From Anaerosoma tenue (lineage in GTDB: Bacteria > Actinomycetota > Coriobacteriia > Anaerosomatales > Anaerosomataceae): a DNA stretch of 32,000 nt. Under the pieces are notes generated by a model. It searched no databases. It saw only the letters and a program-made list of their open reading frames with translations, and was not told where the DNA came from. The stretch spans positions 46,018-78,017 of the forward strand of contig NZ_JALNTY010000002.1 in the NCBI RefSeq assembly GCF_023161965.1, given 5' to 3'. Position 1 is the first letter of the stretch. The number at the start of each line of letters is the position of its first letter. Shown here piece after piece: positions 7,107 through 26,120 of the stretch. The position numbers were made by a program, and so were the translations under genes.

Positions 7107-7748
7107 TCAGAGACCCTCGGCCGTCTCCTGCCGGGCGATCATGTCCTTCACCTTCATCAGGCGGGTCAGGTTGCTCCGCTCCGCCTCGTCGAGCTTCATG
7201 GTGATGCTGCGCACCGTCTCGTCTATGGACGGTATCAGCACGTATTCGAGCGCGTTCACACGTCGGCGGGTGCGCTCGATCTCCGCGGCCAGCAGTTCGA
7301 TTGCCTTCTCGCGTTCCGCGAGCTCGAGAAGCCGCGGCGCCACCTCGGCCAGCCGTGAAAGCCCTGCGTCGAGGACGGCCGGGGTGGTCGCCAGGGAATA
7401 CCCGCCAGGCTCGGGGAGATCGTCAAGAGTGAAGACGGGGACCGAGACGCTCATGAGGCTTCGCTCATCCACCGAGAGCAGGGGCCCTGGCTCGCCGGCC
7501 ATCAGCGCGGTCTCAAGCGAGCCCTGCCCCGCTTCCGCCCGTGCCATCGCGAACTGCGCATACGCCGCGAGAAGGTCGCGCTCCACCTCGGCGCGCAGCC
7601 GCCGGTTCGCGCCGATCCTGCCCTGGAACTCCTTCATGAGCTCGTCGAGCTTGTCCTTCAGGAGCTTGTGTCCCCGACGGGCCACCGCTCCTCTGCGTCG
7701 CAGCTTGAGGAGCTCCATGCGGTTCGGGTTGGCGCGGATCTGCGGCAT
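7107..7748 (-). CDS. atpD: V/A-type ATP synthase subunit D
   Basis: MPQIRANPNRMELLKLRRRGAVARRGHKLLKDKLDELMKEF... is the typical subunit D N-terminus. It is the last gene of the operon. Confidence 0.93.
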   Translation of the reverse strand: MPQIRANPNRMELLKLRRRGAVARRGHKLLKDKLDELMKEFQGRIGANRRLRAEVERDLLAAYAQFAMARAEAGQGSLETALMAGEPGPLLSVDERSLMSVSVPVFTLDDLPEPGGYSLATTPAVLDAGLSRLAEVAPRLLELAEREKAIELLAAEIERTRRRVNALEYVLIPSIDETVRSITMKLDEAERSNLTRLMKVKDMIARQETAEGL

Positions 7749-7750
7749 CG

Positions 7751-7954
7751 CTATCCCCTCGCCAACGACCAGATGATGAGGGCGGTCCCGGCAAGCAGGA
7801 GCACGATGTTGGCCCCGCGCAACACCTTGATCGCCCCCGGCACCGAGCCGGCGGTCCGCTTCGTCCAGCGCAGCATGTACACCTGGTATCCGATGAGCCC
7901 TGCCATCGCCACCAGGAGCGCTGCGGTGAGAACGCTGCCCGTCGTCACGCTCAC
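7751..7954 (-). CDS. Small two-TM membrane protein embedded between atpB and atpD
   Basis: 67 codons. The GTG start overlaps the atpB stop (GTGA, 7954-7951) and the stop lies 2 nt before the atpD ATG. There are two hydrophobic helices ([22 protein letters not shown] and [18 protein letters not shown]) separated by a basic loop. I recognise no family. Confidence 0.6.
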
Positions 7955-9366
7955 GCCTCGTCCGGCTCCTTCAGGTACCGCTCCACGTACTCGTCCTTGA
8001 TGCGCTTCAGCTCGCTCCTGGGCAACAGCGCCATGAGCTCCCAGCCGATCTCCAGCGTGCGCTCCACCGAGCGCTCTTCGTGGGCGTCCTGGCGGATGAA
8101 TCCGCCCTCGAAAGCGTCGGCGAACGCGACGAACGCCTTATCGGTGTCAGATAGAGCCGCATCGCCGAGTATGACCGCGAGCTCCTTGGCCTGCACTCCA
8201 CGCGCGTACGCGCCGAAGAGCTGGTTGGAGAGGTCCGCGTGGTCTTCTCGTGTCTTGCCCGGACCGATGCCTTTCTGCTTCAGGCGCGACAGGCTCGGCA
8301 ACACCGCGATCGGCGGGTAGATGTTCGATCGGTGAAGGTTCCGGTCGAGGATGATCTGCCCCTCGGTGATGTAGCCGGTGAGGTCCGGGATCGGGTGCGT
8401 CTTGTCGTCGTCGGGCATCGAGAGGATCGGCACCTGCGTGATCGACCCCTTCGCGCCCTGGATGCGACCCGCGCGCTCGTAGATGGTGGCCAGGTCGGTG
8501 TACAGGTAGCCCGGATAACCACGGCGCCCCGGCACCTCTTTGCGGGCTGCCGACACCTCGCGCAACGCCTCGCAGTAGTAGGTCATGTCGGTGAGGATGA
8601 CGAGCACGTGCATGTCGCACGTGTACGCGAGGTACTCGGCGCAGGTGAGCGCCATCCGCGGCGTGTTGATGCGCTCCACCGCCGGATCGTCGGCGAGGTT
8701 GAGGAAGAGCACGGCCCGCTCGATCGCAGCCGTGTTGCGGAACTCGGTCATGAAGAAGTCGGCGTCGGCGAACGTGATGCCCATGGCGGCGAAGACCACC
8801 GCGAACTCGCCTTCGAGCTTCTCCCCCACCTTCGTGGGATCGTCGCTCCGGTTGAGCACCGCCGCCTGTCGCGCGATCTGCGCCGCAAGCTCGTTGTGCG
8901 GCAGGCCGGCGCCCGAGAAGATCGGCAGCTTCTGGCCGCGCACCAGCGGGTTCAGCCCGTCGATCGCCGAGATACCCGTCTGGATGAAGTCGTCGGGGAA
9001 GTCGCGCGCTGTGGGATTGATCGGCTCGCCGTGCATCGGACGCCGCTCATCGGGGATGATCTCCGGGCCGCCGTCGCGCGGACGTCCCAGCCCGTCGAAC
9101 ACCCTCCCCAGCATGTCCCGGCTCACACCCAGCTCGAGCGCCCGACCGAGGAACCGCACCTTGGTCTGCGCGGGGTTCGCGCCGCTCGTGCCGGCGAACG
9201 CCTGCACGAGCGCCGTATCGCCATCAACCTCGAGCACGTTGCCGAGCGAACGGGTCCCGTTAGGGTACTCGAGCTCGACAAGCTCGTTGTAGGTGACGTC
9301 GATGACCCGCTCGACCAGCAGCAGCGGCCCCACGATGTCCCGTGTAGTGGTGTATTCGCGCGCCAT
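7951..9366 (-). CDS. atpB: V/A-type ATP synthase subunit B
   Basis: 471 aa. [19 protein letters not shown]..., ...[22 protein letters not shown]..., typical of the non-catalytic B subunit. The start abuts the atpA stop. Confidence 0.95.
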
Positions 9367-11271
9367 CTACGCACTCACCCCGCTTCCGGCCACCAACTGC
9401 GTCTCGATATCCGAGACGATCTCTTCGAATATGCCGAGGTCGTCCAGGGTCGCGTACTTGGCCCGGGCGATCTTCTCCCGCACCGGAGCGGCAAGGATGT
9501 CCTTGAGCGGCGCTCCCCCACGCTGGGCCGCCACCGCCGCCTCATGGAATCGCAGGATCACCCCGAGCAACAGGTCCTGCTCGGTGAGCGAGCTGAACTG
9601 GTCGTCGTCACGGAATGCGTTCTGCTGCAGGAAGTCCTCCCGGATGCTCTTGGCGGTCTCCATCAGGATCTGCTCCTCGGCCGACAGCGCCTCGAGACCC
9701 ACGAGCCGTACGATCTCGGCCAGGTCCGACTCCCGCTGAAGGATGGCCATACAGCGGTCGCGGCGGTCCCTGAACTCGTGCGAGACCTCCTTCTCCCAGT
9801 ACGGGCGGATGCTGTCGAGGTAGAGCGAGTAGCTGGTGAGCCAGTCGATCGCCGGGAAGTGCCGCTGGAACGCCAGCTGATCCTGCAGCGCCCAGTAGAC
9901 CTTCACCACACGAAGCGTGTTCTGCACGACCGGTTCCGACAAGTCCCCACCCGGAGGAGAGACGGACCCGACCACCGATACGGAGCCCGTGCGGGGAGCG
10001 GCAGGGCGGAGTGGCCCCTCCTTGCTGTCCTCGCGCACAGACCGCGCTGCGGAGGCTGCGTCGGGACCCTCCGCACCTGCCGCTCCCACGGTCGCCGCGG
10101 TGGAATCCGAGGACAGCGACGAGGGCCCCGACGGACGCGATCCGCCGAGGCACTGCACGGCCCCCGCACGCTCGTAGAACGCGGCGAGCTTCGTACCGAG
10201 GTACGCGGGGAAGCCCTCGTCTCCGGGCATCTCCTCGAGCCGTCCGGAGATCTCGCGCATCGCCTCGGCCCACCTGCTCGTCGAGTCGGCCTGCAGAACC
10301 ACCTCGTACCCCATGTCGCGGAAGTACTCGGCCATCGTGATGCCCGTGTACACGCTCGCCTCGCGAGCCGCCACCGGCATGTTCGAGGTGTTCGCCACCA
10401 GGACCGTGCGCTTCATCAGCGACTCGCCGGAATACGGGTCGGTGAGCTCCGGGAACTCCATGAGCACGTCGGTCATCTCGTTGCCGCGCTCGCCGCAGCC
10501 GATGAAGATGACCACCTGGGCGTTGCTCCACTTGGCCACCTGGTGCTGCGTGACCGTCTTGCCGGCGCCGAACGGACCGGGGATGCAGGCGACGCCACCC
10601 TTGATGAGCGGGAAGAACGTGTCGATCACACGCGTCCCCGTCACCAGCGGCTCACCCGACGTGATCTTCTTCCGATACGGACGCGGAACGCGGATCGGCC
10701 ACGTCTGCATCATCGTGATCTCATGCTCGGTGCCGTCGGTAGACCTGAGGCGCGCGACCGTCTGCTCCACCGTGAACTGCCCCGCGTGGATCTCGACTAT
10801 CTCGCCGGTCAGTGCCGGCGGCACCATGATGCGATGCTCGACGACCACGTTCTCCTGCACCGTGCCGATGATGTCGCCGCCGGAGACCACGGCGCCCGCC
10901 GTGGCGACCGGCACGAACTCCCAGCGCTTCTCACGGTCGAGCCCGGGGGCCGAGACGCCTCTGCCGAGGAACGCGCCTGACTTCGCGCGCAGCGCGTCGA
11001 GCGGCCGCTGGACGCCGTCGTACACGGCCTCGAGCATGCCGGGGCCGAGCTCCACCGACAACGGCGCGCCGGTCGAGACGACGGGCATGCCAGGGCCCAG
11101 GCCCTCGGTCTCCTCGTAAACCTGGATCGAAGCGCGGTCGCCCCGCATCTCGATGATCTCGCCCATGAGTCCTTGCTCACCCACGCGCACCAGGTCGTAC
11201 ATCCTGGCCGTTCCAAGACCCGTGGCCACCACCAGCGGTCCGGCTACTTTGCGAATCGTGCCCTGATCCAT
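9367..11271 (-). CDS. atpA: V/A-type ATP synthase catalytic subunit A (carries a ~50-aa insertion)
   Basis: Walker A GPFGAGKT. ...[10 protein letters not shown]..., ...[27 protein letters not shown]..., ...[21 protein letters not shown]... At 634 aa it is about 50 aa longer than usual. Confidence 0.95.
9991..10143 (-). other. Low-complexity Ser/Ala/Gly/Pro-rich insertion inside atpA (about aa 377-427)
   Basis: Between ...[11 protein letters not shown] and [15 protein letters not shown] lies [52 protein letters not shown]. As I recall them, Thermus and Enterococcus A subunits have only about 3-5 residues here. Confidence 0.7.
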
Positions 11272-11607
11272 CTAGCCTTCCTCTTCTCCTGACGACATCG
11301 AGGTGCCCAACGCACGCTCGATGGCCCGGTTCAACTTCCTGGCTCCCACGCCGCCCGACGTGCCGGCAGCCGGGATGACCGTCACCGCGGGGACCGGCTT
11401 GTCGGCGGAGTCGGCAACGAGGTCGTCGATCGCCTCGTACACGGGCTCTGTCACGAAGACCGATCCGTACCTTCCGCTCACGAGCTCCGGCCACCGCTCC
11501 CTCGCGTCCTCCGGCCGCTCCACCACCTCGACGGCGAACCCCAGCGGCCGAAAGCCGGCCACACTGGTCGCGTCGCCCACCACCGCGATCATCAGCCGCT
11601 CGCTCAT
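11272..11607 (-). CDS. atpF: V/A-type ATP synthase subunit F
   Basis: 111 aa. MSERLMIAVVGDATSVAGFRPLGF... The ATG overlaps the atpC stop (ATGA) and the stop abuts the atpA start. Confidence 0.88.
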   Translation of the reverse strand: MSERLMIAVVGDATSVAGFRPLGFAVEVVERPEDARERWPELVSGRYGSVFVTEPVYEAIDDLVADSADKPVPAVTVIPAAGTSGGVGARKLNRAIERALGTSMSSGEEEG

Positions 11608-12593
11608 AGCACGCCCCGCAGCCGCTCGCGCACCACGTCGCGCTCCAGACCCGACAGCCTCCCGACCACTACGATCCGCAGCGCCACTACCTCGGCCTCC
11701 CGCGCCAGAACGTACGCGAGCACGGGCTCCGGTCCGCTCGGCACCATACGCGCCGAGGCCATCCTGGCGGCATCGAGCGACGCCGCCGCGAGGTCGTAAC
11801 GCTCGAGATCGAGCAGGTCCGCAACGTCGAGCCCCGGCACCGCGCGAGTCCCTGCCACGGCCTCCGCAAGCTCCTCGGCATCCATACGCGAGACCTCGGA
11901 CGCCAGGCCTTCGATGCTGCGCGAACCGCCACCGATCATCGCCTTGGCAACCTCGGGTCCCGGCAGACGTTTGGCGTTGGCCCGCAGGAGCACCCTGGTG
12001 TTCGCCAGGTCGATCCGAAGCGTCATCAGATCGCGCAGGAACGCCACCCGCGACCGGCGGGCCTCGGCCGCGAGCGCTTCGTAGAGCGCGTGGTCCACGG
12101 CCGTCTCCACCTCAGACAACGCCGGCGGCTGCTCGGCATCGTCCCACGCGGTCAGCAGCGCGCACATCGCGCCGGGAAGCTGCTCTCCGGTGCCGAGGAA
12201 CGCCGCGGGCTCGATCGTGCCGAGCGCGCTCAGCCTGGGCGCCGGCAGTCCGAGCACGCGGGTCTTGAGCGCCGTGCGCAGGTTGCGGTAGTCGTACGGC
12301 AACCTGAAGAACCGCACGACCGCCTCGGGCAGACCCGCCTCCAACAGGAACTCGTCGTACAGGTCGCCGAGTGACGCGTCGAGCGCTCGCTCGACGTCCG
12401 TGGCGGTGGACGCCTGCTCGAGATACCGCCCGAACGCGGTCTCAGAGAGGATGCGGCGCTGCTCGGCGAAGTCGGGCGCGTCGATCAGCCGCTCGAAGAC
12501 CGACCGCGTCAGCAGCTTGGCCTGCAGGACGCGAACGCGCCCTACGGCGAAGCCGTACCGGATGTCATCGCGTATCGAGGCGAGTTGCGCCAC
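11604..12593 (-). CDS. atpC: V/A-type ATP synthase subunit C (d-type central stalk/socket subunit)
   Basis: GTG at 12593 lies 1 nt after the atpE stop (TAA at 12597-12595) and is preceded by GGAGGA. About 330 aa and helical, in the operon position between E and F. The ORF-track start at 12716 would overlap atpE. Confidence 0.82.
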   Translation of the reverse strand: MAQLASIRDDIRYGFAVGRVRVLQAKLLTRSVFERLIDAPDFAEQRRILSETAFGRYLEQASTATDVERALDASLGDLYDEFLLEAGLPEAVVRFFRLPYDYRNLRTALKTRVLGLPAPRLSALGTIEPAAFLGTGEQLPGAMCALLTAWDDAEQPPALSEVETAVDHALYEALAAEARRSRVAFLRDLMTLRIDLANTRVLLRANAKRLPGPEVAKAMIGGGSRSIEGLASEVSRMDAEELAEAVAGTRAVPGLDVADLLDLERYDLAAASLDAARMASARMVPSGPEPVLAYVLAREAEVVALRIVVVGRLSGLERDVVRERLRGVL

Positions 12594-12594
12594 G

Positions 12595-13179
12595 TTACCG
12601 GTCCTCCCCGGCGAACAGGGTGCGCACGGCCACGTGCAGCAGGTCGGCACGGTGCTCGGCGATGTACGACGCGGCGGAAACGTCCACCCGTACGCCGTCG
12701 CCCTCAACGCACACACCCCGCTCGATGTCTGGCGACGTGCCTTCCACTGTCACATCGATGCCAGCGTCCCGCAGCAGCGCGCCGAGCGTCCGGAGGCGCT
12801 GCTCGTCGGCGGCGCTCACGCGGATCCGCTGCCCGGGTACGGCGACCTCGGCCACCTCACGCGCGATGAGCGCGACGTACTCGTCGTCAGGGAGGTCCTC
12901 GAGTCTGTGTCCAGCCTCGGCGAGAGCCCTCTCGGCCAGGTCCTTCTTGGCGGCCAGAAGCGAGTCGCGGGCCGCAAGCCGCGCATTGGCGAGGAGGGTG
13001 TCGGCCTCTACCTTCGCCTGCGTCAGCGTGCGCTCCACGATCCTCTCGGCCTCGCGTTCCGCGTCGAGACGCGCTCGCTCTCGCACCGCGTCGGCACGCT
13101 CCCGCGCAGCCGAGATGATCGCGTCCGCCTCGGCGCGCGCATCGTCCTCTATGCGGGTGATGATGTCAGCGATCGCCAC
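12595..13179 (-). CDS. atpE: V/A-type ATP synthase subunit E (peripheral stalk)
   Basis: 194 aa with a GTG start. MAIADIITRIEDDARAEADAIISAARERA... has a charged coiled-coil N-terminus and a globular C-terminus. Confidence 0.88.
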   Translation of the reverse strand: MAIADIITRIEDDARAEADAIISAARERADAVRERARLDAEREAERIVERTLTQAKVEADTLLANARLAARDSLLAAKKDLAERALAEAGHRLEDLPDDEYVALIAREVAEVAVPGQRIRVSAADEQRLRTLGALLRDAGIDVTVEGTSPDIERGVCVEGDGVRVDVSAASYIAEHRADLLHVAVRTLFAGEDR

Positions 13180-13194
13180 CTGGGATCAGCCTCA

Positions 13195-13695
13195 CTATCC
13201 GCCGAAGGTCGCCTGCAGCGCGGTCATCATCAGCACTGTCACGATGAGAGCGAAGACCGCGTAGGTCTCGACCAGCGCCGGGAAGATCAGCGCCTTGCCC
13301 GAGTCCTCGCTCCTGCGCGCCACGATGCCAGCAGCCGCGGCGCCCGTCTTACCCTGATAGATGCCGGTGAACATGCCAAGGAACGCCACCGGCAGGCACG
13401 CCAGGAACACCGCGAAGCCCTGCGGCCCGGTCAGCGTCGACTCACCGCCGAGGATGTTGAAGAAGATCAGCACGAGCACCGCCGCGATGAACCCGTAGAT
13501 GCCCTGCGTGCTCGGCATCGCCGCGAGCGGCAAGAGCTTGCCGAACTTCTCGCCGTCCTCGGTCACGATGCCTGATACGGTGGCAGACGCGATGGTGATG
13601 CCGATCGCGGAGCCCACACCCCCGAGCACCGCCGCAACACCACCACCGAACAGCGCCCAGTTGATGCCCGAGATGCCCCAGAAGAGGTCGCTCAC
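13195..13695 (-). CDS. atpK: V/A-type ATP synthase proteolipid subunit K (duplicated, four-TM type)
   Basis: GTG at 13695 overlaps the atpI stop (GTGA). 166 aa, Gly/Ala-rich, four helices, with PSTQGIYGF, IYQGK and LVETYA motifs. The longer ORF 13195..14262 is an antisense-type extension into atpI. Confidence 0.9.
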   Translation of the reverse strand: MSDLFWGISGINWALFGGGVAAVLGGVGSAIGITIASATVSGIVTEDGEKFGKLLPLAAMPSTQGIYGFIAAVLVLIFFNILGGESTLTGPQGFAVFLACLPVAFLGMFTGIYQGKTGAAAAGIVARRSEDSGKALIFPALVETYAVFALIVTVLMMTALQATFGG

Positions 13696-15866
13696 GTTCC
13701 CGCTCCTTCCTGCCGCGCGCTGTCGGCATGCAATACCAGTGTCTTCGATCTGAAGGCGAACGGCGCATAGGCGCGGCCCCCGCCCTCGTAGAACTTGCCA
13801 AAGAACTCGACGAACTGCAGACGCGCAGGATGCACGAACGCGCTCAGCAGGTTGATCACCACGTTGAACACATGGCCCACCACGAAGATCAGCGCGGCGA
13901 AGACCATGATGACCACGCCGCCGACGATGGCCCCGCCGCCCTTGTCGAACATGCTGCCGGCACCGGCGCCCACGAGCCTGGCGAGCAGGTTGAACACCAT
14001 TCCCACGAGCGTTGCCGAAAGCGCGAGCGCAGCGAGCCGCGTGTAGCTCAGGATATCGCCGATCAGCGATGAGAGGCCGTACACGGCGTAGGCTCCGCCG
14101 AGCATGGCCGCCACCACCCGCCGGGTCGCCTTGGACACGACCATTCCTGCGACCGTGATCGCAAGCAGCATCCAGCCGAGGGGGGCGCTCCAACCCAACG
14201 CCAGCGAGAGCAGCCAGCCCACGAACACCGCAAGCCACGCGGCGCCCAGCCCCTTGTCCCACGCGGGCGCTTCCACCTCACGCAGCGCGACGTCGATCGC
14301 ACGGCTCTTGCCGAGCGCGGTGAGGCCCAGCCCCAGTACGATGGCCACCGTGGAGAGCGACGGCACGAGGACCGCCACCGCGATCGCGGCGAACAGCACC
14401 ACCGTTGACGCCTGATCGAAGACGGCCGACGCCCAGTCGCCTTTGCGCGCGAGATTCCAGGCCGAGATCAGCACGCCGAAGAGCACCTGCAGCACGCCGA
14501 GCGCGATGGAGAACACCAGGAAGGTGGGCAGCTCCTCCATCGGGTTGATGAGCCGGAGACTCTCGAGAAGCGGCGGCAGCTCGAGGTCCCATGCGAAGTA
14601 CGAGCCGAGCGCCACCCCGGCGAACATCGCACCCACCCCGCCCACGATGAAGAGGTCCATGAGCTTCTTAACGCCCGGAGCCACATCGAGCTTCTTCTTG
14701 ATGAGCCACGACGCCACGATCAGCATCAGCCCATAACCCACATCACCGATGCAGATACCGAAGAAGACCCAAAAGAACGGCGCCAGCAGCGGTGTGGGAT
14801 CCAGCTCGTCGTACCGCGGCCGGCCGTAGAGGTCGGTCAGCACCTCGAATGGACGCAAGAATCTCGGGTTCTCGAGCTCCACCGGCGGCGTGTCACCTGG
14901 GCCGGGGTCCTCGTAGCTCACGTCAAGCGTGTCAGCGAGCGGCTCAAGCGCCTCGTCCAGGACGCCCCGGCGCTTGGCGCTCACCCACCCGGTGATGACG
15001 AAGGCCCGCTCCGTCGTCCCGAAGTGTTCGCGGACGGTCACCGCTTCAAGGTCCGCGTCGATGGCCTCCACGAGCGCCACGGCATCGTCGTGGTACTGCT
15101 CGGAGAGGGTCTGCGCCTGCCCGTCGAGAACCGCGAGCCGCTCGTCTATCTCGGCTATGCGCTCGAGCGCGACCGCCCGTTCCTCTGCGGGGTAGTCGTG
15201 GAGCCCGGGGAACTTCACGTCGGCGAAGTCGGTGCCCGCAAGCACCGCGCGCACCTCGTCCACCACAGTACGATGCGCCATCACGACCCATGCCGTCTTC
15301 CCGCCCACCGAGGCGAGTTCCTCCACCGAGACGTGCGGCGTGATCTCGCGGAGCATCTCCCTGGTCGCACAGCCCTCAGGCGAGGGGATCACACCCGTGA
15401 ACAACGCCACATGCTCGGTGCCCACCCATCGGCCGATCTCGAGCCGGAGCGGCTCCCATGCAAGCAACTCGTGCGCAAGGGCCTGGAGGCGGCCCCGCTC
15501 GCGGCGCAGTTCCGCCATCGAGTCGGCGACCCCCTGGCACTGCTCGTAGACGTGCAGGAGCGTCGTGTCCACCTCAAGAGCGGCGAACTCATCCTCCGAG
15601 AGATGCAGCTTCTCGGATATGAACGAAGAGAACGGCTGGTCGCTCGTGTGATAGCGCCGCAGGAAGTCGCGGATGAAGACGGCGTCGGCGCGATACTCCT
15701 CGAGACGCCTCACCTCAGCGGGATCGGGCGAGGCGTACGCCGGCGCCGTACCCTCGGCCACCGTCTCGATATCGAGCGCTCCGGCGCGCCGCATGCGCTC
15801 GACAGCCTCGTCGAGCGCCGACGTGTGGCCGAGCACGGTGACGCGCAACATACGTGCGACAGCCAC
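13692..15866 (-). CDS. atpI: V/A-type ATP synthase subunit I (membrane a-subunit)
   Basis: A soluble N-terminal half is followed by a polytopic C-terminal half. The likely start is GTG at 15866 (VAVARMLRVTVLGH...), 4 nt after the upstream stop. ATG at 15851 is the alternative. The ORF-track start at 15980 overlaps the upstream gene. Confidence 0.88.
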   Translation of the reverse strand: MAVARMLRVTVLGHTSALDEAVERMRRAGALDIETVAEGTAPAYASPDPAEVRRLEEYRADAVFIRDFLRRYHTSDQPFSSFISEKLHLSEDEFAALEVDTTLLHVYEQCQGVADSMAELRRERGRLQALAHELLAWEPLRLEIGRWVGTEHVALFTGVIPSPEGCATREMLREITPHVSVEELASVGGKTAWVVMAHRTVVDEVRAVLAGTDFADVKFPGLHDYPAEERAVALERIAEIDERLAVLDGQAQTLSEQYHDDAVALVEAIDADLEAVTVREHFGTTERAFVITGWVSAKRRGVLDEALEPLADTLDVSYEDPGPGDTPPVELENPRFLRPFEVLTDLYGRPRYDELDPTPLLAPFFWVFFGICIGDVGYGLMLIVASWLIKKKLDVAPGVKKLMDLFIVGGVGAMFAGVALGSYFAWDLELPPLLESLRLINPMEELPTFLVFSIALGVLQVLFGVLISAWNLARKGDWASAVFDQASTVVLFAAIAVAVLVPSLSTVAIVLGLGLTALGKSRAIDVALREVEAPAWDKGLGAAWLAVFVGWLLSLALGWSAPLGWMLLAITVAGMVVSKATRRVVAAMLGGAYAVYGLSSLIGDILSYTRLAALALSATLVGMVFNLLARLVGAGAGSMFDKGGGAIVGGVVIMVFAALIFVVGHVFNVVINLLSAFVHPARLQFVEFFGKFYEGGGRAYAPFAFRSKTLVLHADSARQEGAGT

Positions 15867-15870
15867 GATA

Positions 15871-16176
15871 TCAGCCCGCCAGCTCGTCCAGGACGGCCGC
15901 CACCGCGACCGGAAGGCGACCCTCGGCCGCTCGGACGTACTCATCACGGGCCGCCGCAGCCTCCGCCTCATACCGCTCACGCTCGGCGTGCGCGTCCGTC
16001 AGGATGGCCGCAGCCTTCGCTTCCGCGTCCTGGCGGGCCGCCGCGATCGTCGACCGCCTGACGTGGTCGGCATCCGATGCGGCCGCGCGCTCAAGCGAGT
16101 TCGCGTGCTCGCGCGCTTCGGCGACGATGTCCCGGGCACGTTCCTCGACGCTCAGGATGCGTTCGAGCTTTTCCAT
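15871..16176 (-). CDS. Small coiled-coil V/A-ATPase stalk subunit (G/H-like, NtpF-like position)
   Basis: 101 aa. MEKLERILSVEERARDIVAEAREHA..., Ala/Glu/Arg-rich and helical. It is the first gene of the operon, directly upstream of atpI, as in ntp/atp V-type operons. Confidence 0.7.
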   Translation of the reverse strand: MEKLERILSVEERARDIVAEAREHANSLERAAASDADHVRRSTIAAARQDAEAKAAAILTDAHAERERYEAEAAAARDEYVRAAEGRLPVAVAAVLDELAG

Positions 16177-19363: not shown

Positions 19364-22042
19364 ATGCGACCGACTACCCGGCGTGACGCCGGGCGTCTCA
19401 TGGTCCCTGGTCCACGGTCGTGGACGCAGGTGCTTTCTCTCGCTCTCGCGCTCGCACTCCTCGTGCCAATCACCCCCTCCACGGCGCTCGTGCGCACACC
19501 CATCACCGTCGACGGAGCGTTCGCGGATTGGTCGCCTGTCTTCGACAGCGCCGCCAACTGCCGCTACGATCCGGCGGGCGACACCGGAGGGTCGAACAGC
19601 GACCTCACCGTGACGGCCGCAACATACGACGACAGCCGTGTGTACCTCTACGTGCGCCGGGCAGCCTCCGGCGGCGGCGCCGCCCCCGTGTACCGCATCT
19701 ACATCGACAGTGACGGTGACGGGTTCCTTGGAGCCGCCGACCACGTACTCGTGTTCGAGTTGAAGGGCGGCAACGCGCTCAAGTCGATCGGTCTGTACCA
19801 GTACTCTCCCTCGGACGGAGTGAACGGCGACCCGATCGCCTCACCACCCCCCGGCGGACTCGGATCGGCCGTCGCCGTGAACGGCGGAGCGCTTGAGGGG
19901 GTCGGCGAGACGGACGGCTCGCAGTTCGAGGGGTCGGTCACCTGGGCGGCGCTCGGGATCGCACCCGACACACCGGTCAACCTGCGGTTCGCGGCGATAC
20001 AGGGCAACGACTGGGACCACGCCGAGCCTATCTCGTTCGTGCGTGCGGGCGTCCACCTGTCGCCAGGCACCACGCTGGGCATGGCTGCAGGCATGGACGC
20101 GTTCTACCCGCACACCGTGACCAACACCGGTAACATCCCCCTTAGCCTCGCGCTGACAGCGGAATCGTCACGGGGCTGGTCCGCGATGGTGCGACTGGCC
20201 GGCGACACCACCCCGCTCACCACACTGGAGCTGCAACCGGGCGACAGCATCGACGTGGAGGCCGTGCTCGCCATACCGGGTGATACGCCCAACGGTACCC
20301 GCGATACGCTCACCGTGAGCGCCGAGAACCAGGGGGCGACCCCGGCCAGCGCCTCGGCCACGGATGAAGCGGTCGTGGGACCCCTTCTCGTCATCCCCGA
20401 CCGCAAGGTCTCGGGCGCTCCCGGCACGACCGTGACGTTCGCAAACACCGTGCAGAGCAACGTGGACACCACGATAACAGTGGAGTTGAGCGCGGTCTCC
20501 GATCACGGCTGGCCGATCTCGCTACGCTCCGGTGGTGCAGAGGTCACCGGTCCGCTCACCCTCGAGCCGCGCGCGTCGATGGACATCGAGGTCGTGCTCG
20601 AGGTGCCCGCGGGCGCGCAACTCGGCATCACGGACGTGACCAGGGTAGAAGCGATGGTGACAGGACAGCCGGAGGTGCGTGCGAACGCCTACGACACCGT
20701 CACGGTGCGTCCTGCCCTTGAGGTCGCTCCGCCGATGAGCCTGCCCGCCGGACCCGGGACATCGGTACTGTACCGCCACACGATCACCAACAGCACCGCT
20801 GAAGAGAGAACGCTGGCGCTGACTGCGTCCTCATCGCTCGGATGGCCGGCGCAGGTCTTCGCCGGGGACGCCGCCACCCCGCTTTCCGAGGTCACCCTGG
20901 CTCCGTACGGCGGTTCGACCGACGTGGTCGTGCGCGTGACGGTGCCTGCGGGAACACCTCCCCTCACTGGAGGCACGGCCACGACCGACCTCGCCACGCT
21001 CACCGCCCAGGACGCCCTCGGCTCAGCATCCGTGGCCGACACGACCATCGTGAGCAGGCTCGCCACGTTCGGCGTGGGGGGCTTCGGCACGGCACAGGAC
21101 ACCTTCACCCTTGGCGACCTCGTATACGCCCGGGGAATGGGCCTGCCCACCGGTCAGACCGTGACGTTCAGGTGGACCGATCCCTCCGGAGCGGTGATGG
21201 CCACCGAAGACGTGCGTTCCGACGGGACCGGTATCGCCCAGTCGCGGCACGACCTCTCACCCACCGACCTGCCAGGTACGTGGACCGTGACGCTCCTCAA
21301 CGGGACTACCGAGCTCGCCACGCACGACTTCTACGTGGGATACCGGGCGCGGATCGGCTCGCTTTCCGCCACAGGCGGCGAGGTGACGCAGTCTCCCGTC
21401 AACGTGGCATGCGCGCTCGACAACACGGGCGCCGTGGACCTCCCCGACACCACCGTCACCTACCTGCTGTGGTGGGACGCTGACGGGGACGGAGCCGCGA
21501 GCCCCGGCGACTCGTACGTGGGCGGAGACGGCACGTGGCTCGCCGTTGGCGAGGGCGACGGATACACGCATCAGACCGCCGGACTCTCGGTACCGGGAGG
21601 CACCACCGGAGCCACCGACACGTGGAGCGTGAGCAACGAGGACCTCAGGTTCGCGGGCACATACCGGCTGCGCGCTGTCTGGGAGGCGGCGGACGGTACG
21701 ATCGTCGACACGCGAGAGACGACGCACTTCGCCACGCCAGGCAAGCCCGAACTCAGCATGTCCGTGAGCACTCCCCTGGTCGACTTCGGCACGATCGAGC
21801 CGGGCGTGCAGTACACCCGCTCCGACGTGACCGTCAACGTATCCGCCTCGGTGCCCTTCCACCTCAGCGGCACTGCTGCGGGCGACACCGATCAGCTGGG
21901 CCTCACCCGCTCGCTCGACAATGTGCTCGGCGAGGCGATGGACTCGGGTTCGTTCACCGATACCATCGGCATCCTCGTCTCATGGATGGTCGACCCGGGG
22001 TATTACGAAGCGACCGTCACCTACACGATCGTGCCGAGGTGA
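19364..22042 (+). CDS. Large secreted multi-domain surface protein (N-terminal beta-sandwich, 3 NEW3/CARDB-like repeats, further Ig-like domains, C-terminal domain related to the downstream small proteins)
   Basis: ATG at 19364 follows GGGGGA. The N-terminus is signal-like (RSWTQVLSLALALALLVPITPSTALV). The ITVDGAFADW domain is followed by three ~110-aa repeats carrying TNTG/TNS ... GW ... PG motifs. The C-terminus is LVDFGTIEPG ... VTVNVSAS ... VSWMVDPGYYEATVTYTIVPR. There is no LPXTG motif and no TM anchor. Confidence 0.85.
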   Translation: MRPTTRRDAGRLMVPGPRSWTQVLSLALALALLVPITPSTALVRTPITVDGAFADWSPVFDSAANCRYDPAGDTGGSNSDLTVTAATYDDSRVYLYVRRAASGGGAAPVYRIYIDSDGDGFLGAADHVLVFELKGGNALKSIGLYQYSPSDGVNGDPIASPPPGGLGSAVAVNGGALEGVGETDGSQFEGSVTWAALGIAPDTPVNLRFAAIQGNDWDHAEPISFVRAGVHLSPGTTLGMAAGMDAFYPHTVTNTGNIPLSLALTAESSRGWSAMVRLAGDTTPLTTLELQPGDSIDVEAVLAIPGDTPNGTRDTLTVSAENQGATPASASATDEAVVGPLLVIPDRKVSGAPGTTVTFANTVQSNVDTTITVELSAVSDHGWPISLRSGGAEVTGPLTLEPRASMDIEVVLEVPAGAQLGITDVTRVEAMVTGQPEVRANAYDTVTVRPALEVAPPMSLPAGPGTSVLYRHTITNSTAEERTLALTASSSLGWPAQVFAGDAATPLSEVTLAPYGGSTDVVVRVTVPAGTPPLTGGTATTDLATLTAQDALGSASVADTTIVSRLATFGVGGFGTAQDTFTLGDLVYARGMGLPTGQTVTFRWTDPSGAVMATEDVRSDGTGIAQSRHDLSPTDLPGTWTVTLLNGTTELATHDFYVGYRARIGSLSATGGEVTQSPVNVACALDNTGAVDLPDTTVTYLLWWDADGDGAASPGDSYVGGDGTWLAVGEGDGYTHQTAGLSVPGGTTGATDTWSVSNEDLRFAGTYRLRAVWEAADGTIVDTRETTHFATPGKPELSMSVSTPLVDFGTIEPGVQYTRSDVTVNVSASVPFHLSGTAAGDTDQLGLTRSLDNVLGEAMDSGSFTDTIGILVSWMVDPGYYEATVTYTIVPR
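20054..21058 (+). repeat. Three tandem ~110-aa protein-domain repeats (NEW3/CARDB-like) within the large protein
   Basis: R1 FYPHTVTNTGNIPLSLALTAESSRGWSAMV..LELQPGDSIDVEAVLAIPGDTPNGT. R2 TVTFANTVQSNVDTTITVELSAVSDHGWPISL..LTLEPRASMDIEVVLEVPAGAQLG. R3 SVLYRHTITNSTAEERTLALTASSSLGWPAQV..VTLAPYGGSTDVVVRVTVPAGTPP. Confidence 0.7.
21737..22039 (+). other. C-terminal ~100-aa domain of the large protein, homologous to the three small secreted paralogs
   Basis: VDFGTIEPG / VTVNVSASVPFHLS / VSWMVDPGYYEATVTYTIV aligns by eye with VDLGTIDPE / VTVTGKSNKPATMG / VDYNVDPGAVSGTITYSLV of the small proteins, in the same order and at the extreme C-terminus. Confidence 0.6.
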
Positions 22043-22113: not shown

Positions 22114-22142
22114 TTCACAAAGGGGGTGATTGCCCTCATACT
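22114..22142 (+). promoter_or_regulatory. Candidate sigma70-type promoter for small paralog 1
   Basis: TTCACA (22114-22119), a 17-nt spacer, then CATACT (22137-22142), inside an AT-enriched patch (22090-22150). About 100-nt leader. Confidence 0.4.
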
Positions 22143-22249: not shown

Positions 22250-22651
22250 ATGAAGCGAACCATCATCATCTCGATCGCGGTAGTGGCGCTGGTCTTCGGC
22301 GCCGTAAGCTATGCCACGGCCGCCAGCGGTGACACGGCTGTTACCGCGACCGTGGGCACGCTGCTCGAGCTCACGGCACCCGGCGCCCAGGATCTTGGCA
22401 CGATCGACCCGGAGAACTCGGGCAGCGCCAACGTCACCGTCACCGGCAAGTCGAACAAGAGCGCTACGATGAGCGCGGCGGTTGCCAAGGGCAACTTCAC
22501 CACGCTGACCTCCACGCTCGAGACGGCCGTCTCCGGCCTCCGTGGTGGCAGCATCAGCGAAGCCGACACCATCACGGGCACCGTCGACTACAGCGTTGAC
22601 GCCGGCACCGCGCTGTCGGGCACCGTCACCTACTCACTCGTGCAGAACTAG
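22250..22651 (+). CDS. Small secreted beta-rich protein, paralog 1 (133 aa)
   Basis: GAGGAG RBS, then ATG at 22250. Signal peptide MKRTIIISIAVVALVFGAVSYATA. The mature part is Thr/Ser/Gly/Val-rich: TATVGTLLELTAPGAQDLGTIDPE..VTVTGKSNK..GLRGG..GTVTYSLVQN. The ORF-track start at 22130 is an extension. Confidence 0.88.
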   Translation: MKRTIIISIAVVALVFGAVSYATAASGDTAVTATVGTLLELTAPGAQDLGTIDPENSGSANVTVTGKSNKSATMSAAVAKGNFTTLTSTLETAVSGLRGGSISEADTITGTVDYSVDAGTALSGTVTYSLVQN

Positions 22652-23041: not shown

Positions 23042-23443
23042 ATGAAGAGAACCATCATCATCTCGATCGCGGTAGTGGCGCTGGTCTTCGGCGCTATCAG
23101 CTACGCGAGCGCAGTGACGGGCACAACGGCCGTGAGCGCGACCGTCGGCACCCTGCTCGAGATCACGGCACCCGGCCCTGTCGACCTGGGCGAGATCATG
23201 CCGGACACGCCGAAGAGCGCCAGCGTCACCGTCACCGGGAAGTCGAACAAGCTGGCCACGATGAGCGCATCGGTGGCGCCGGGCAACTTCACCACGCTGG
23301 CCTCCACGCTCCAGACGGCCGTCTCCGGTCTTCGCGGCGGCACCATCAGCCAGGCGGACACCATCACCGGCACCGTCGACTACACCGTTGACGCCGGCAC
23401 CGCTCTGTCGGGCACCGTCACCTACTCGCTCGTGCAGGACTAG
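23042..23443 (+). CDS. Small secreted beta-rich protein, paralog 2 (133 aa)
   Basis: GGAGGA RBS, then ATG at 23042. About 80% identical to paralog 1 by eye, with a 45-nt identical DNA run in the signal-peptide region (22258-22302 versus 23050-23094). Confidence 0.88.
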   Translation: MKRTIIISIAVVALVFGAISYASAVTGTTAVSATVGTLLEITAPGPVDLGEIMPDTPKSASVTVTGKSNKLATMSASVAPGNFTTLASTLQTAVSGLRGGTISQADTITGTVDYTVDAGTALSGTVTYSLVQD

Positions 23444-23824: not shown

Positions 23825-24220
23825 ATGAAGAGGACTCTGATCATCGGACTTTCAGTCGTCGCTCTCGTCTTCGGCGCCGTGAGCTACGCGGCGGCCGCCA
23901 GCGGCGACACGAGCGTCAGCGCCACCGTGGGCACCCTGCTGGAGATCACGGCACCCGGCCCGGTGGACCTTGGCACCATCGACCCGGAGACTCCCGGGAC
24001 CGCGACGGTGACGGTCACCGGCAAGTCCAACAAACCTGCAACGATGGGAGCCACGGTCAACACCGGCACCTTCACCACCCTGACATCGACGACCGCTGAT
24101 GCGGTGACCGGCCTCCGGGGCGGCAGCATCGCGGTGGGTTACACGATCGAGGGAGGCGTCGACTACAACGTCGACCCCGGCGCCGTTTCCGGCACGATCA
24201 CCTACTCGCTGGTTCAGTAG
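23825..24220 (+). CDS. Small secreted beta-rich protein, paralog 3 (131 aa, most diverged)
   Basis: GAAGGAGA RBS, then ATG at 23825. MKRTLIIGLSVVALVFGAVSYAAA signal peptide, with the same motif order (ATVGTLLEITAPGPVDLGTIDPE..VTVTGKSNK..GLRGG..GTITYSLVQ). Confidence 0.88.
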   Translation: MKRTLIIGLSVVALVFGAVSYAAAASGDTSVSATVGTLLEITAPGPVDLGTIDPETPGTATVTVTGKSNKPATMGATVNTGTFTTLTSTTADAVTGLRGGSIAVGYTIEGGVDYNVDPGAVSGTITYSLVQ

Positions 24221-24314: not shown

Positions 24315-25349
24315 TCAGGAGTCACCGGCGGACTCGCCCACCCTGGCCGGGCGACGCCCGCGCCCGCGTGCCCGCTTCCGCTCATCGGCACGCCTGGCAC
24401 TCCGCCAGCTCAGCCAGATCGCGATACCGCCGAGCGTGACGATAATCGCGATGACCAGCCACAGCGGCACGAACCAGACGGCCTTGTCGATCGTGATGAC
24501 GTCGGTGGCGCCGACTTCGGATCCTTCGCGCGGATAGCTCACCTCAAGACGCATGGTGTACCGGCCGAGGAGTTGCGTTGCCATCTCTACCGAACCGCTC
24601 TGCTCGAAGTTCGTCCCCGCGTACACGGTCGCGTCCTCGGTCACGACAGAGTCGACGACCTCTTGCAGGTCGCCGTCGAGCACGAGGATCCGGGCCTCGA
24701 TGTCCTTGTCGATGTTGCCGTCGTTACGCACCACGAACGTGTACGGCGCCAGCTTCGAGAGCACGAACGCCTTGGTCACGAACGGCCGGACCTCAAGCCG
24801 CTCCACCACCTCGCCGGCGACCCGCATGCTCACGCGAGCGCCAACGCGGCCGGTCACCTCCGTGGTGGCTCCCTCGGTCTCCGGATCCTCCCCGCCGAAC
24901 ATCTCGAAGAAGATGATCACCTGGTGGTCTCCCGGGGGCGCGTCTTCGGGAACCTCCACCTCGAACGCCACGGGCACCTGCTGGCCCGGCGTGAGTGATA
25001 CGTACGGGGTGTTGCCGCGGGTCCTGGTCTCGGCATCGATGTCCATCCGCACCCAGGTGGCCGGAGTGCCGGCGCCGGTGATGCCGGTGATATCCGGTGT
25101 CTGGTAGTCGATCGCGCCGTCTTCCGACACGAGCTGGTCGGCGGCGTAGATCAGCACGTCGATGTCCTCGTCACCATTGTTGGAGACGACCACCTCACCG
25201 CCGCCCGTCTGGCCCGGCGCCAGTGAGAGCTCGAAAGTGCCCGTGGAGAGACCGACCGTGCGCTCCGCATACGCGGAGAGCGGCGCGGAGACGAGAAGAG
25301 CGAGCACGATGGACGCAACGAGGCCCAGCTTCCCCCTGCGAGCCCGCAT
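24315..25349 (-). CDS. Type-I membrane surface protein with DUF916/DUF3324-like (WxL-interacting-protein-like) architecture
   Basis: Signal peptide (LGLVASIVLALLVSAPLSAYA), two beta-sandwich-like halves (FELSLAPGQTGGGEVVVSNNGDEDIDVLIYAAD..GAIDY.. and ..YTFVVRNDGNIDKDIEARILVLDG..), a C-terminal TM helix (VWFVPLWLVIAIIVTLGGIAIWLSW) and a basic tail. The ATG overlaps the stop of the response-regulator gene. Confidence 0.8.
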   Translation of the reverse strand: MRARRGKLGLVASIVLALLVSAPLSAYAERTVGLSTGTFELSLAPGQTGGGEVVVSNNGDEDIDVLIYAADQLVSEDGAIDYQTPDITGITGAGTPATWVRMDIDAETRTRGNTPYVSLTPGQQVPVAFEVEVPEDAPPGDHQVIIFFEMFGGEDPETEGATTEVTGRVGARVSMRVAGEVVERLEVRPFVTKAFVLSKLAPYTFVVRNDGNIDKDIEARILVLDGDLQEVVDSVVTEDATVYAGTNFEQSGSVEMATQLLGRYTMRLEVSYPREGSEVGATDVITIDKAVWFVPLWLVIAIIVTLGGIAIWLSWRSARRADERKRARGRGRRPARVGESAGDS

Positions 25350-26089
25350 CAGATCCCCACCGCTTCGCGGAACGACTTCACCTGGCGGCGGGCCACGGGC
25401 ACCTGCGTCTCGTCACGGTCTGACATCACCACGACGTACGCGCCCTCGGCCCGCAGGATCTCCTTCACCTTGTTCAGGTTGATCATGTAACTCCTGTGCA
25501 GACGGCGGAACGAGTCGCTCGACAGCCGCTCCTCGAGTTCCGAGAGCGTGAGATCCACGAGATACTGATTCTCGTACGTGTGCACATACGTGGACTTGTT
25601 CTTGGCCGAGATGTACACCACGTCGTCAAGGTCGAGGAGCACGGTGCGCCCGCCCTTGCGCACTGCGAGCTTCCTGAAGTCACCCTCGGCCTGCGATCCG
25701 GCGCCCACCCGCTGGCGCCCTCGCATCAGACTCTGGATGCGCGCGATGAGCTCCATCAGGTTGAACGGCTTGGTCACGTACTGTTGTACGCCCTGCTTGA
25801 AGGCGAGGATCCGCGCGAGGTCTTGGGTCTTGGCCGTCAGCATGATCACCGGGATGTCCGCCGTGAGGGGATCGTTCCTGATCTCCATCAGCGTCATCCA
25901 GCCGTCCACGCGCGGCATCATGATGTCGAGGAGCACCACGTCGGTGGGATGCTTATGCAGCATCTCGAGCGCTTCGGAGCCGTCAGAGGCCGAGACGACA
26001 CGCATACCCTCGTTCTCAAGGCCCATCTGGATCATGTCTAAGATGGCCTCGTCGTCATCGACGACGAGTACTCTGATCGGGTCCGACAC
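25349..26089 (-). CDS. Response regulator, REC plus LytTR DNA-binding domain (no kinase gene nearby)
   Basis: IRVLVVDDDEAILDM...VVLLDIMMPRVDG...MLTAK is the receiver domain. ...VYISAKNKSTYVHTYENQYLVDLTLSELEERL..FRRLHRSYMINLNKV is the LytTR domain. The likely start is GTG at 26089, preceded by GAGGAGG. GTG at 26119 is the alternative. Confidence 0.9.
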   Translation of the reverse strand: MSDPIRVLVVDDDEAILDMIQMGLENEGMRVVSASDGSEALEMLHKHPTDVVLLDIMMPRVDGWMTLMEIRNDPLTADIPVIMLTAKTQDLARILAFKQGVQQYVTKPFNLMELIARIQSLMRGRQRVGAGSQAEGDFRKLAVRKGGRTVLLDLDDVVYISAKNKSTYVHTYENQYLVDLTLSELEERLSSDSFRRLHRSYMINLNKVKEILRAEGAYVVVMSDRDETQVPVARRQVKSFREAVGI

Positions 26090-26120
26090 CGCCACCTCCT
26101 CGAGCTGGAGCGTGACCACA

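Follow-up and report, generated by a model that had tools for sequence, protein, structure and literature searches.

WxL/Csc clusters of Lactobacillales, Listeria, and Bacillus are reportedly the subject of work by Siezen in 2006, Brinster in 2007, Galloway-Pena in 2015, and Hassan and Williamson in 2022/2023. Such a cluster comprises small proteins consisting of the WxL domain only, large proteins carrying the domain at the C-terminus, and a WxLIP, a strand of which is predicted by AlphaFold2 (AF2) to complete the β-sandwich of the WxL domain (PMC9772566, PMC10599100). The small WxL proteins are reported to be acidic (PMC9772566), and Hassan et al. (2023) defined a cluster by the presence of at least one WxLIP and at least two WxL proteins within four genes. 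For E. faecium WxLIP, crystal structures of the protein by itself (PDB entry ID, 9i1y) and with a long WxL protein (9i25, entitled ‘WxLIP from E. faecium locus A bound to long WxL’) became available on 2026-01-28. The Pam pilus of the Candidate Phyla Radiation (CPR) is an usher-less donor-strand pilus composed of the PamA/B/E pilins and the tip protein PamT, with the PapD-like chaperones PamC/D being held in the membrane by a C-terminal helix (bioRxiv 10.64898/2026.03.03.709456). Here, we describe a locus of Anaerosoma tenue, contained in a stretch of 32,000 nucleotides (contig NZ_JALNTY010000002.1, positions 46,018 to 78,017; hereafter the window), that encodes one large and three small secreted proteins and, convergent with them, a WxLIP homologue. 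A first-pass annotation of the window had proposed that the C-terminal domain of the large protein resembles one copy of the small tandem proteins, and had compared this arrangement with chaperone-usher pili and with WxL clusters.

A C-terminal module shared by the large and small proteins

The last ~100 residues of the large protein and the three small proteins in their mature form are true homologues. Pairwise BLASTP aligned the large-protein C-terminus with small protein 3 (33% identity over 85 residues; E-value, 2e-5) and with small protein 1 (30% identity over 89 residues; E-value, 0.003), and an hhalign comparison of 21 large-protein C-termini with 62 mature small proteins gave a probability of 96.2% and an E-value of 2.4e-9, with the alignment covering 91 of ~109 columns and reaching the last residue of both. 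A hidden Markov model (HMM) built from the small proteins only matched the C-terminal domain in all 20 large proteins reported (the window protein and 19 homologues), nearly over its full length (HMM positions ~13–107; 2.5–17 bits), whereas the internal immunoglobulin (Ig)-like repeats of the large proteins scored at most 3.6 bits. Since the repeats stay at noise, the resemblance is specific to this domain and does not reflect general Ig-likeness. In the AF2 models of a small protein (pLDDT, 85.9) and of the large C-terminus (pLDDT, 87.2; pTM, 0.71), the strands follow in identical order and register, and the best PDB match of both is 2wmp_B. A joint profile of the large and small sequences found 267 proteins at E ≤ 1e-3 among 1.84 billion representatives, and many of the small proteins found in this way bridge the two groups, combining SNK and a terminal Gln (hallmarks of the small proteins) with VDFG, VPW, and PGxY (hallmarks of the large proteins). 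The likeness proposed in the first-pass annotation is thus borne out by pairwise alignment, profile comparison, and predicted structure, and the arrangement of large and small proteins is kept in relatives, recurring across related loci.

No Pfam or NCBIfam model covers the module in the small proteins or in the 145 relatives scanned. The module is ~100 residues long, all-β, and acidic, with neither Cys nor Trp in the window copies. It constitutes the whole mature small protein (isoelectric point, ~4.1), which ends in ...YSLVQ(N/D) with no LPXTG motif and no transmembrane (TM) tail. It is located at the extreme C-terminus in 190 of the 214 family members and never more than six residues from the end, in proteins that fall into size classes of ~135–170, 250–290, 410–550, and 760–1035 residues. 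The most conserved positions are Gly28, Pro32, Ser47–Asn48, the aromatic residue 94 (Trp/Tyr), and Tyr107 (212/214); the N-terminal strand is conserved as well, with an alternating V-x-V-x-A-x-V pattern (Val, Ala, and Val in 135, 150, and 125 of the 214 sequences, respectively). The few members named by source are from Coriobacteriia metagenome-assembled genomes (MAGs), A. tenue, and strain EMTCatB1, with the exception of one contig binned as Elusimicrobia. A PDB sequence search with the module profile returned only noise (fibronectin; E-value, 0.2), and a true WxL protein likewise matches no PDB chain by phmmer. Among the relatives, the proteins of 250–290 residues carry an N-terminal DUF2808 (12/145; for example, P0131, P0140, P0143, and P0144) and fill the slot of the large protein in the same locus type (L094, 842–1675); their build of an N-terminal sandwich, a linker, and the C-terminal module is reminiscent of Pam pilins. 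The name ‘spore coat protein U-like’, given by JGI to one relative, was not adopted and is a lead only, no SCPU family match being listed in any scan.

A WxLIP homologue in conserved linkage with the module

The 344-residue protein encoded by the convergent neighbouring gene, judged from its sequence, is a genuine homologue of WxLIP (DUF916/PGBD and DUF3324/HBD plus TM helix), the third defining component of WxL clusters. It matches PF06030 (WxLIP_PGBD, DUF916) with 31.3 bits against a gathering score of 27.3, and the same family is matched by 58 of its 83 relatives; no match to PF11797 was found in the protein. The family profile weakly matches the solved EfmWxLIP1 in the PDB (E-value, 0.009), and its hhalign comparison with sets of 4 and 86 Firmicutes WxLIPs gave a probability of 98.4% and E-values of 4e-15 to 1e-14 over 219–230 columns, encompassing both Ig-like domains. 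Based on this alignment across both domains, together with a signal peptide, a C-terminal TM helix, and a basic tail recognizable in the sequence, the 344-residue protein is a full WxLIP. Homologues also occur in Actinomycetota MAGs and in Parvivirga hydrogeniphila. The WxLIP-like family has, in addition, a nearly invariant Arg triad (GRxGARIxxRV) at the inter-domain hinge (residues 168–176), which is absent from Firmicutes WxLIPs; we speculate, by analogy with Arg8/Lys112 of PapD, that it may be a candidate clamp for the invariant C-terminus of the module.

The stop codon of the adjacent LytTR-type regulator gene overlaps the start codon of the WxLIP gene (TGATG, at 25349 on the − strand), and this protein is therefore probably the regulator of the locus. 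The coordinates of the two genes also overlap or nearly abut in L090, L091, and L094, and the LytTR–WxLIP pairing itself is found in L001, L004, L090, L091, L093, and L094.

Module protein(s), WxLIP, and LytTR regulator are adjacent in six of six readable Coriobacteriia loci (the window, L001, L004/L005, L090, L093, and L094; Table 1). The recurring set consists of one or more module proteins, followed by the convergent WxLIP with its LytTR regulator, and is usually flanked by the same housekeeping genes (DUF711/ACT on one side and gltA-like/ApbE on the other). The small protein and WxLIP are constant across the loci, whereas the larger partner is absent or variable in its N-terminal part (277, 412, or ~890 residues). 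For the distant member on the ‘Elusimicrobia’ MAG contig (L092), no WxLIP lies within the 9 kb covered to one side; to the other side, the contig extends for only 1.6 kb. The loci without a large protein contain secreted mini-proteins between the small-protein gene and WxLIP (L004, 10647–10952, +; L090, 9131–9418, −). These have a literal W-x-L after SN/AN (RSNAPWRLDV and ANTEWTLV) and match the module HMM weakly (L004 protein: E-value, 1e-3); a role as adaptor or terminator subunit is conceivable. In L001 (EMTCatB1), a public gene call (13669–15057, +) lies on the wrong strand over the WxLIP homologue (13768–14832, −), so that the cluster is hidden in that annotation.

Table 1. Module proteins and mini-proteins of the related Coriobacteriia loci (lengths in residues)
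Locus	Larger module protein	Small protein	Mini-protein
L001	890	136	none
L004/L005	none	137	101
L090	none	163	95
L093	412	170	none
L094	277 (DUF2808 + module)	164	none

Possible roles of the module

With its WxLIP homologue and the conserved linkage of module protein, WxLIP, and LytTR regulator, the locus follows the logic of WxL clusters. We hold with moderate confidence that it represents an undescribed counterpart, in the Coriobacteriia (Anaerosomatales), of the Firmicutes WxL/Csc clusters, in which the module would be a strand-complementable docking handle held by WxLIP. One large and three small proteins, ending in or consisting of the ~100-residue acidic β-sandwich, would be exported by the Sec pathway and would then share this handle, while the WxLIP homologue would be fixed in the cytoplasmic membrane by its C-terminal helix. 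The ectodomain of WxLIP may capture the module through a β-strand inserted into or alongside the sandwich, in the manner predicted, and meanwhile crystallised, for WxLIP with the long WxL protein, and the captured proteins would be held at the wall. The large protein would display its array of Ig-like and MG2-like domains outward as a binding arm, presumably adhesive, and the small module-only proteins may fill additional sites on WxLIP or the wall, or form bridges between them; the LytTR regulator, being co-translated with WxLIP, would control expression. A polymer of the small proteins into which the large protein is built, as suggested in the first-pass annotation, is hypothetical, and independent docking of the large and the small proteins on WxLIP or on the cell wall is equally conceivable.

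The locus resembles WxL clusters in having domain-only small protein(s), a large multi-Ig protein with the same domain at the extreme C-terminus, and a membrane-anchored WxLIP, as well as in the acidity of the small proteins and the presence of an adjacent transcription regulator. It differs from them in the length of the module (~100 residues versus ~110–180 residues for the WxL domain), in its actinobacterial host (Coriobacteriia; Firmicutes account for more than 91% of WxL proteins), and in the type of regulator: here a LytTR response regulator with translational coupling to WxLIP, there a helix-turn-helix (HTH) protein. Of the WxL-cluster analogy drawn in the first-pass annotation, the three-part logic stands and has gained a real WxLIP homologue, the product of a gene that the annotation had not covered, but the module itself fails both PF13731 (WxL) and the Trp-x-Leu motifs.

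The sequence relationship of the module to WxL was examined with a reference set of 192 WxL proteins, derived from 4 plasmid-borne (Enterococcus and Listeria) and 80 Bacillota genomic WxLIP loci. In comparison with 185 true WxL domains (small, 129; large, 56), the module gave a collinear hhalign alignment with scores of 22.7–24.3 (P ~3e-3; 2e-4 in global mode), exceeding the maximum of 13.3 obtained in 30 column shuffles, and the positive control (WxL small versus WxL large) gave a probability of 99.6%. However, the signal is not specific: with the WxLIP-like family this profile reaches 22.3, and with the N-terminal repeats of the large protein itself 19.6. The positions corresponding to the two Trp-x-Leu motifs, which lie on adjacent strands of the WxL domain and are absent from the module, read [A/Y/F/W]-x-[L/I/M] (column 51 of the family; A67/Y66/F55/W11, x, then L/I/M) and Y-[T/S]-[V/L] (column 107; Y212/F2, T/S, then V/L), with a literal W-x-L confined to some relatives and the mini-proteins. 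Identification of the module as a WxL domain was thus rejected, with PF13731 never matched, the motifs replaced, and the hhalign signal unspecific. As the similarity beats shuffled columns but not β-sandwich controls, homology is not claimed, and we regard the module as analogous to WxL or, at the very most, related to it in the twilight zone.

Several of these results, and others, weigh against the reading of the locus as a WxL/Csc counterpart with the module docked on WxLIP. PF13731 matched none of the window proteins at E ≤ 1 and none of 10 relatives at E ≤ 10, and a scan of the 145 relatives at E ≤ 0.01, for which 25 of 39 families were listed, does not show it in that list; counted with PF13731, the WxL-domain proteins of the A. 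tenue locus fall short of the two in the published definition. The three window small proteins contain no Trp, and the hhalign score with WxL is barely higher than the 18–22 obtained with unrelated β-sandwich controls. There is no LPXTG protein at the locus, while an LPXTG partner is common in WxL clusters. The best structural matches of both models are donor-strand pilins and not wall-binding domains, and the top 50 Foldseek matches do not include the long-WxL chain of 9i25. Finally, binding of the module by WxLIP is proposed from gene linkage and analogy only.

It is possible, albeit doubtful, that the locus instead encodes an usher-less Gram-positive donor-strand pilus, with the small proteins as the polymerising pilins and the large protein as the distal tip adhesin, comparable to FimH and PapG. 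The N-terminal strand (T-V-x-V-x-A-x-V) of one subunit, contained in mature residues ~1–14 of small protein 1 (ASGDTAVTATVGT), would complete the sandwich of the next; the WxLIP homologue would serve as a membrane-anchored chaperone and/or base anchor, comparable to PamC/PamD; and the fibres would be the ‘pili-like appendages’ of Anaerosomatales. The structural comparison points in this direction: Foldseek ranks 2wmp_B, the PapGII pilin domain, first for both models (E-values, 8e-3 and 2e-3; TM-score, 0.44–0.52), followed by FimG/F/A, PapA, CfaB, CsuA/B, Caf1, and Saf, with the cannulae-type and TasA fibres (8aur and 9h8b) lower in the list. At the same time, no Foldseek match reaches E < 1e-3, the TM-score is about 0.5, and the same match lists hold generic Ig/MSP/PapD-like domains. 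The NCBIfam model most often matched is CPR_Pam_pilin_C (NF058581; 13/145 members; best E-value, 1.2e-4), all matches being sub-threshold, for example that of P0120 with 13.7 bits against a cut-off of 55 bits; PamT is matched by 3/145 members (best E-value, 0.003) and enterobacterial fimbrial subunits by 6/145, also below the curated cut-offs.

Further observations in favour of a pilus come from the subunits and the loci. The N-terminal segment of the small proteins, whose genes are in tandem triplicate, is strongly conserved yet unpaired in the AF2 monomer, and a free N-terminal strand is missing from the large-protein module: when the C-terminal fragment is modelled by itself with AF2, the equivalent residues are unstructured, and they appear, from the sequence, to be part of the last strand of the preceding domain. 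Some loci have no large protein, whereas none of those examined is without a small protein and WxLIP. Usher-less donor-strand pili with TM-anchored PapD-like chaperones provide a precedent (bioRxiv 10.64898/2026.03.03.709456). Moreover, P. hydrogeniphila and A. tenue, the latter with a Gram-positive cell wall, were described as being covered with abundant pili-like appendages to which no genes were assigned (PMC9686372), and both carry the locus. On the other hand, WxLIP matches no Pam or PapD chaperone model, WxL systems, the sole characterised partners of WxLIP, are not known to polymerise, and other pilus systems elsewhere in the genome may be the source of the appendages. Those of Parvivirga appear only on solid ferrihydrite.

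Comparison with described fibres yields likenesses and differences in each case. As in Pam pili, the envelope has no outer membrane, there is no usher, the subunits end in a truncated Ig-like C-terminal domain, and a two-Ig-domain protein with a C-terminal TM helix (here WxLIP) is encoded in the same locus; in contrast, the family matches lie far under the curated cut-off, WxLIP is not similar to PamC/D in sequence, an additional N-terminal domain of nine strands is found in Pam pilins, and a filament made by the A. tenue locus is hypothetical. As with the adhesins FimH and PapG of chaperone-usher pili, the large protein ends in one subunit-like domain without its own N-terminal donor strand, and the adjoining free subunits, like FimA/G/F, PapA, CsuA/B, and Caf1, have a conserved alternating-hydrophobic N-terminal strand; the fold similarity to these is marginal (E-value, 2e-3 or weaker; TM-score, ~0.5), with no significant sequence similarity. 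The chaperone-usher analogy of the first-pass annotation therefore holds for the architecture and, weakly, for the fold (Foldseek E-values, 2e-3 to 0.1), but not for the machinery or the host, which is Gram-positive and has no usher or PapD-family chaperone in the window. With the TasA/TapA fibres of Bacillus and the archaeal bundling pili and cannulae, the locus shares Sec-secreted small β-sandwich subunits and hosts without an outer membrane; it differs in the absence of a SipW-type signal peptidase, a Peptidase_M73/camelysin signature, and a TapA-like gene, and in the much smaller size of the A. tenue subunit. Neither Peptidase_M73/TasA nor SipW had Pfam or NCBIfam matches in the scans of the window and the family, and Pfam scans of the open reading frames (ORFs) in the 32-kb window found no sortase, SipW, usher, or PapD-family chaperone. 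A sortase-assembled pilus is likewise not indicated, the small proteins having no LPXTG and the window no sortase gene. Still tentatively, the small proteins may be regarded as the subunits of the Anaerosomatales appendages, the large protein as their tip adhesin, and WxLIP as the chaperone or anchor; WxLIPs in general would then be functional Gram-positive equivalents of PapD, and WxL clusters and donor-strand pili would embody one principle of strand complementation.

We consider it unlikely that the module is a plain C-terminal cell-wall-binding or structural Ig-like domain, with duplication of the 3′ terminus of the large gene having given rise to the small genes, or vice versa, and with no interaction between the large and small proteins or with WxLIP. 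The module scores weakly against many β-sandwich families, the small genes are recent tandem duplicates (70–81% identity), and WxL domains themselves were first described as non-covalent wall anchors (PMC9772566), all of which would suit such a domain. Nevertheless, the linkage to WxLIP and LytTR is kept even though the module proteins are <40% identical and the large partner is wholly different in its N-terminal part, and the strict C-terminal position is maintained across size classes from 135 to ~1000 residues. The small and large lineages are old, being ~30% identical and each having its own conserved hallmarks, so that the split between them is not a recent local duplication. A chance or compositional resemblance between T/V/S-rich β-strands without homology, to which the pairwise identity of just ~30% and the richness of both sequences in Thr, Val, Ser, and Gly might have pointed, is effectively refuted by the hhalign E-value of 2.4e-9, the domain-specific HMM match in all 20 large proteins reported, the bridging family members, and the predicted secondary structure that is identical in order and register.

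Genomic setting and significance

The features of the window are compiled in Table 2. The window is rich in GC (~63–69% in 2-kb bins), and an A. tenue (Coriobacteriia, Anaerosomatales) protein matches small protein 1 with 100% identity. The large protein consists of an N-terminal signal-like segment, several Ig-like repeats, and an MG2-like domain, followed by the shared module; its Pfam matches (Ig_VWA7, FixG_C, NPCBM_assoc, and MG2) are all below the gathering score, and its 21 homologues are all from Coriobacteriia or metagenomes. The small genes form a tandem triplication with a period of ~790 nucleotides and spacers of ~380 nucleotides, with sigma-70-like sites at 22114 and 22899. A piece of 37 nucleotides coding for the last C-terminal strand forms a four-copy repeat that recurs in the large gene and in the three small ones, each time at the 3′ end. 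An Rfam scan of the window gave no matches, and no histidine kinase is present in it. A V-type ATPase operon, syntenic in L001, L004, and L090, lies directly upstream of the locus. Farther away, the window encodes an 886-residue multihaem c-type cytochrome that has MtrC/MtrF-like domains and CXXCH motifs in pairs, in keeping with the repertoire for extracellular electron transfer that Anaerosomatales are reported to have.

Table 2. Positions of the locus and of neighbouring features in the window
Feature	Position	Strand	Remarks
Multihaem c-type cytochrome	41–2701	+	
V-type ATPase operon	7107–16176	−	subunit I at 13692–15980
Large secreted multi-domain protein	19364–22042	+	892 aa from ATG at 19364; ORF opens at TTG 19289; stop codon 22040–22042
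Shared C-terminal module of large protein	21737–22039	+	last 101 aa, PGKPELSMSVSTPLVDFGTIEPGV...VTYTIVPR
Small secreted protein 1	22250–22651	+	133 aa; 24-aa signal peptide + 109-aa module
Small secreted protein 2	23042–23443	+	133 aa; tandem paralogue, 81% identical to protein 1
Small secreted protein 3	23825–24220	+	131 aa; tandem paralogue, 70–73% identical to proteins 1 and 2
WxLIP homologue	24315–25349	−	344 aa; convergent with the module-protein genes; PF06030 match
LytTR-type response regulator	25349–26119	−	Response_reg + LytTR domains

Clusters of WxL proteins and WxLIP are regarded as a speciality of Firmicutes, tied to gut colonisation and virulence. In the present locus, which belongs to a deep-subsurface, iron- and sulfur-respiring order of actinobacteria, a genuine WxLIP is paired with a different, unannotated, and much smaller C-terminal module, and the WxLIP ‘holder’ would therefore be separable from the WxL ‘handle’. 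This suggests that the combination of a membrane-anchored two-Ig protein with strand-complementable C-terminal modules is a principle broader than either family. For the pili-like appendages that abound on Anaerosoma and Parvivirga, the locus also provides a concrete gene candidate. If it does encode a pilus, it would represent the second type of usher-less donor-strand pilus in bacteria without an outer membrane, after the CPR Pam pilus, and would prompt a re-reading of WxLIP as a chaperone.

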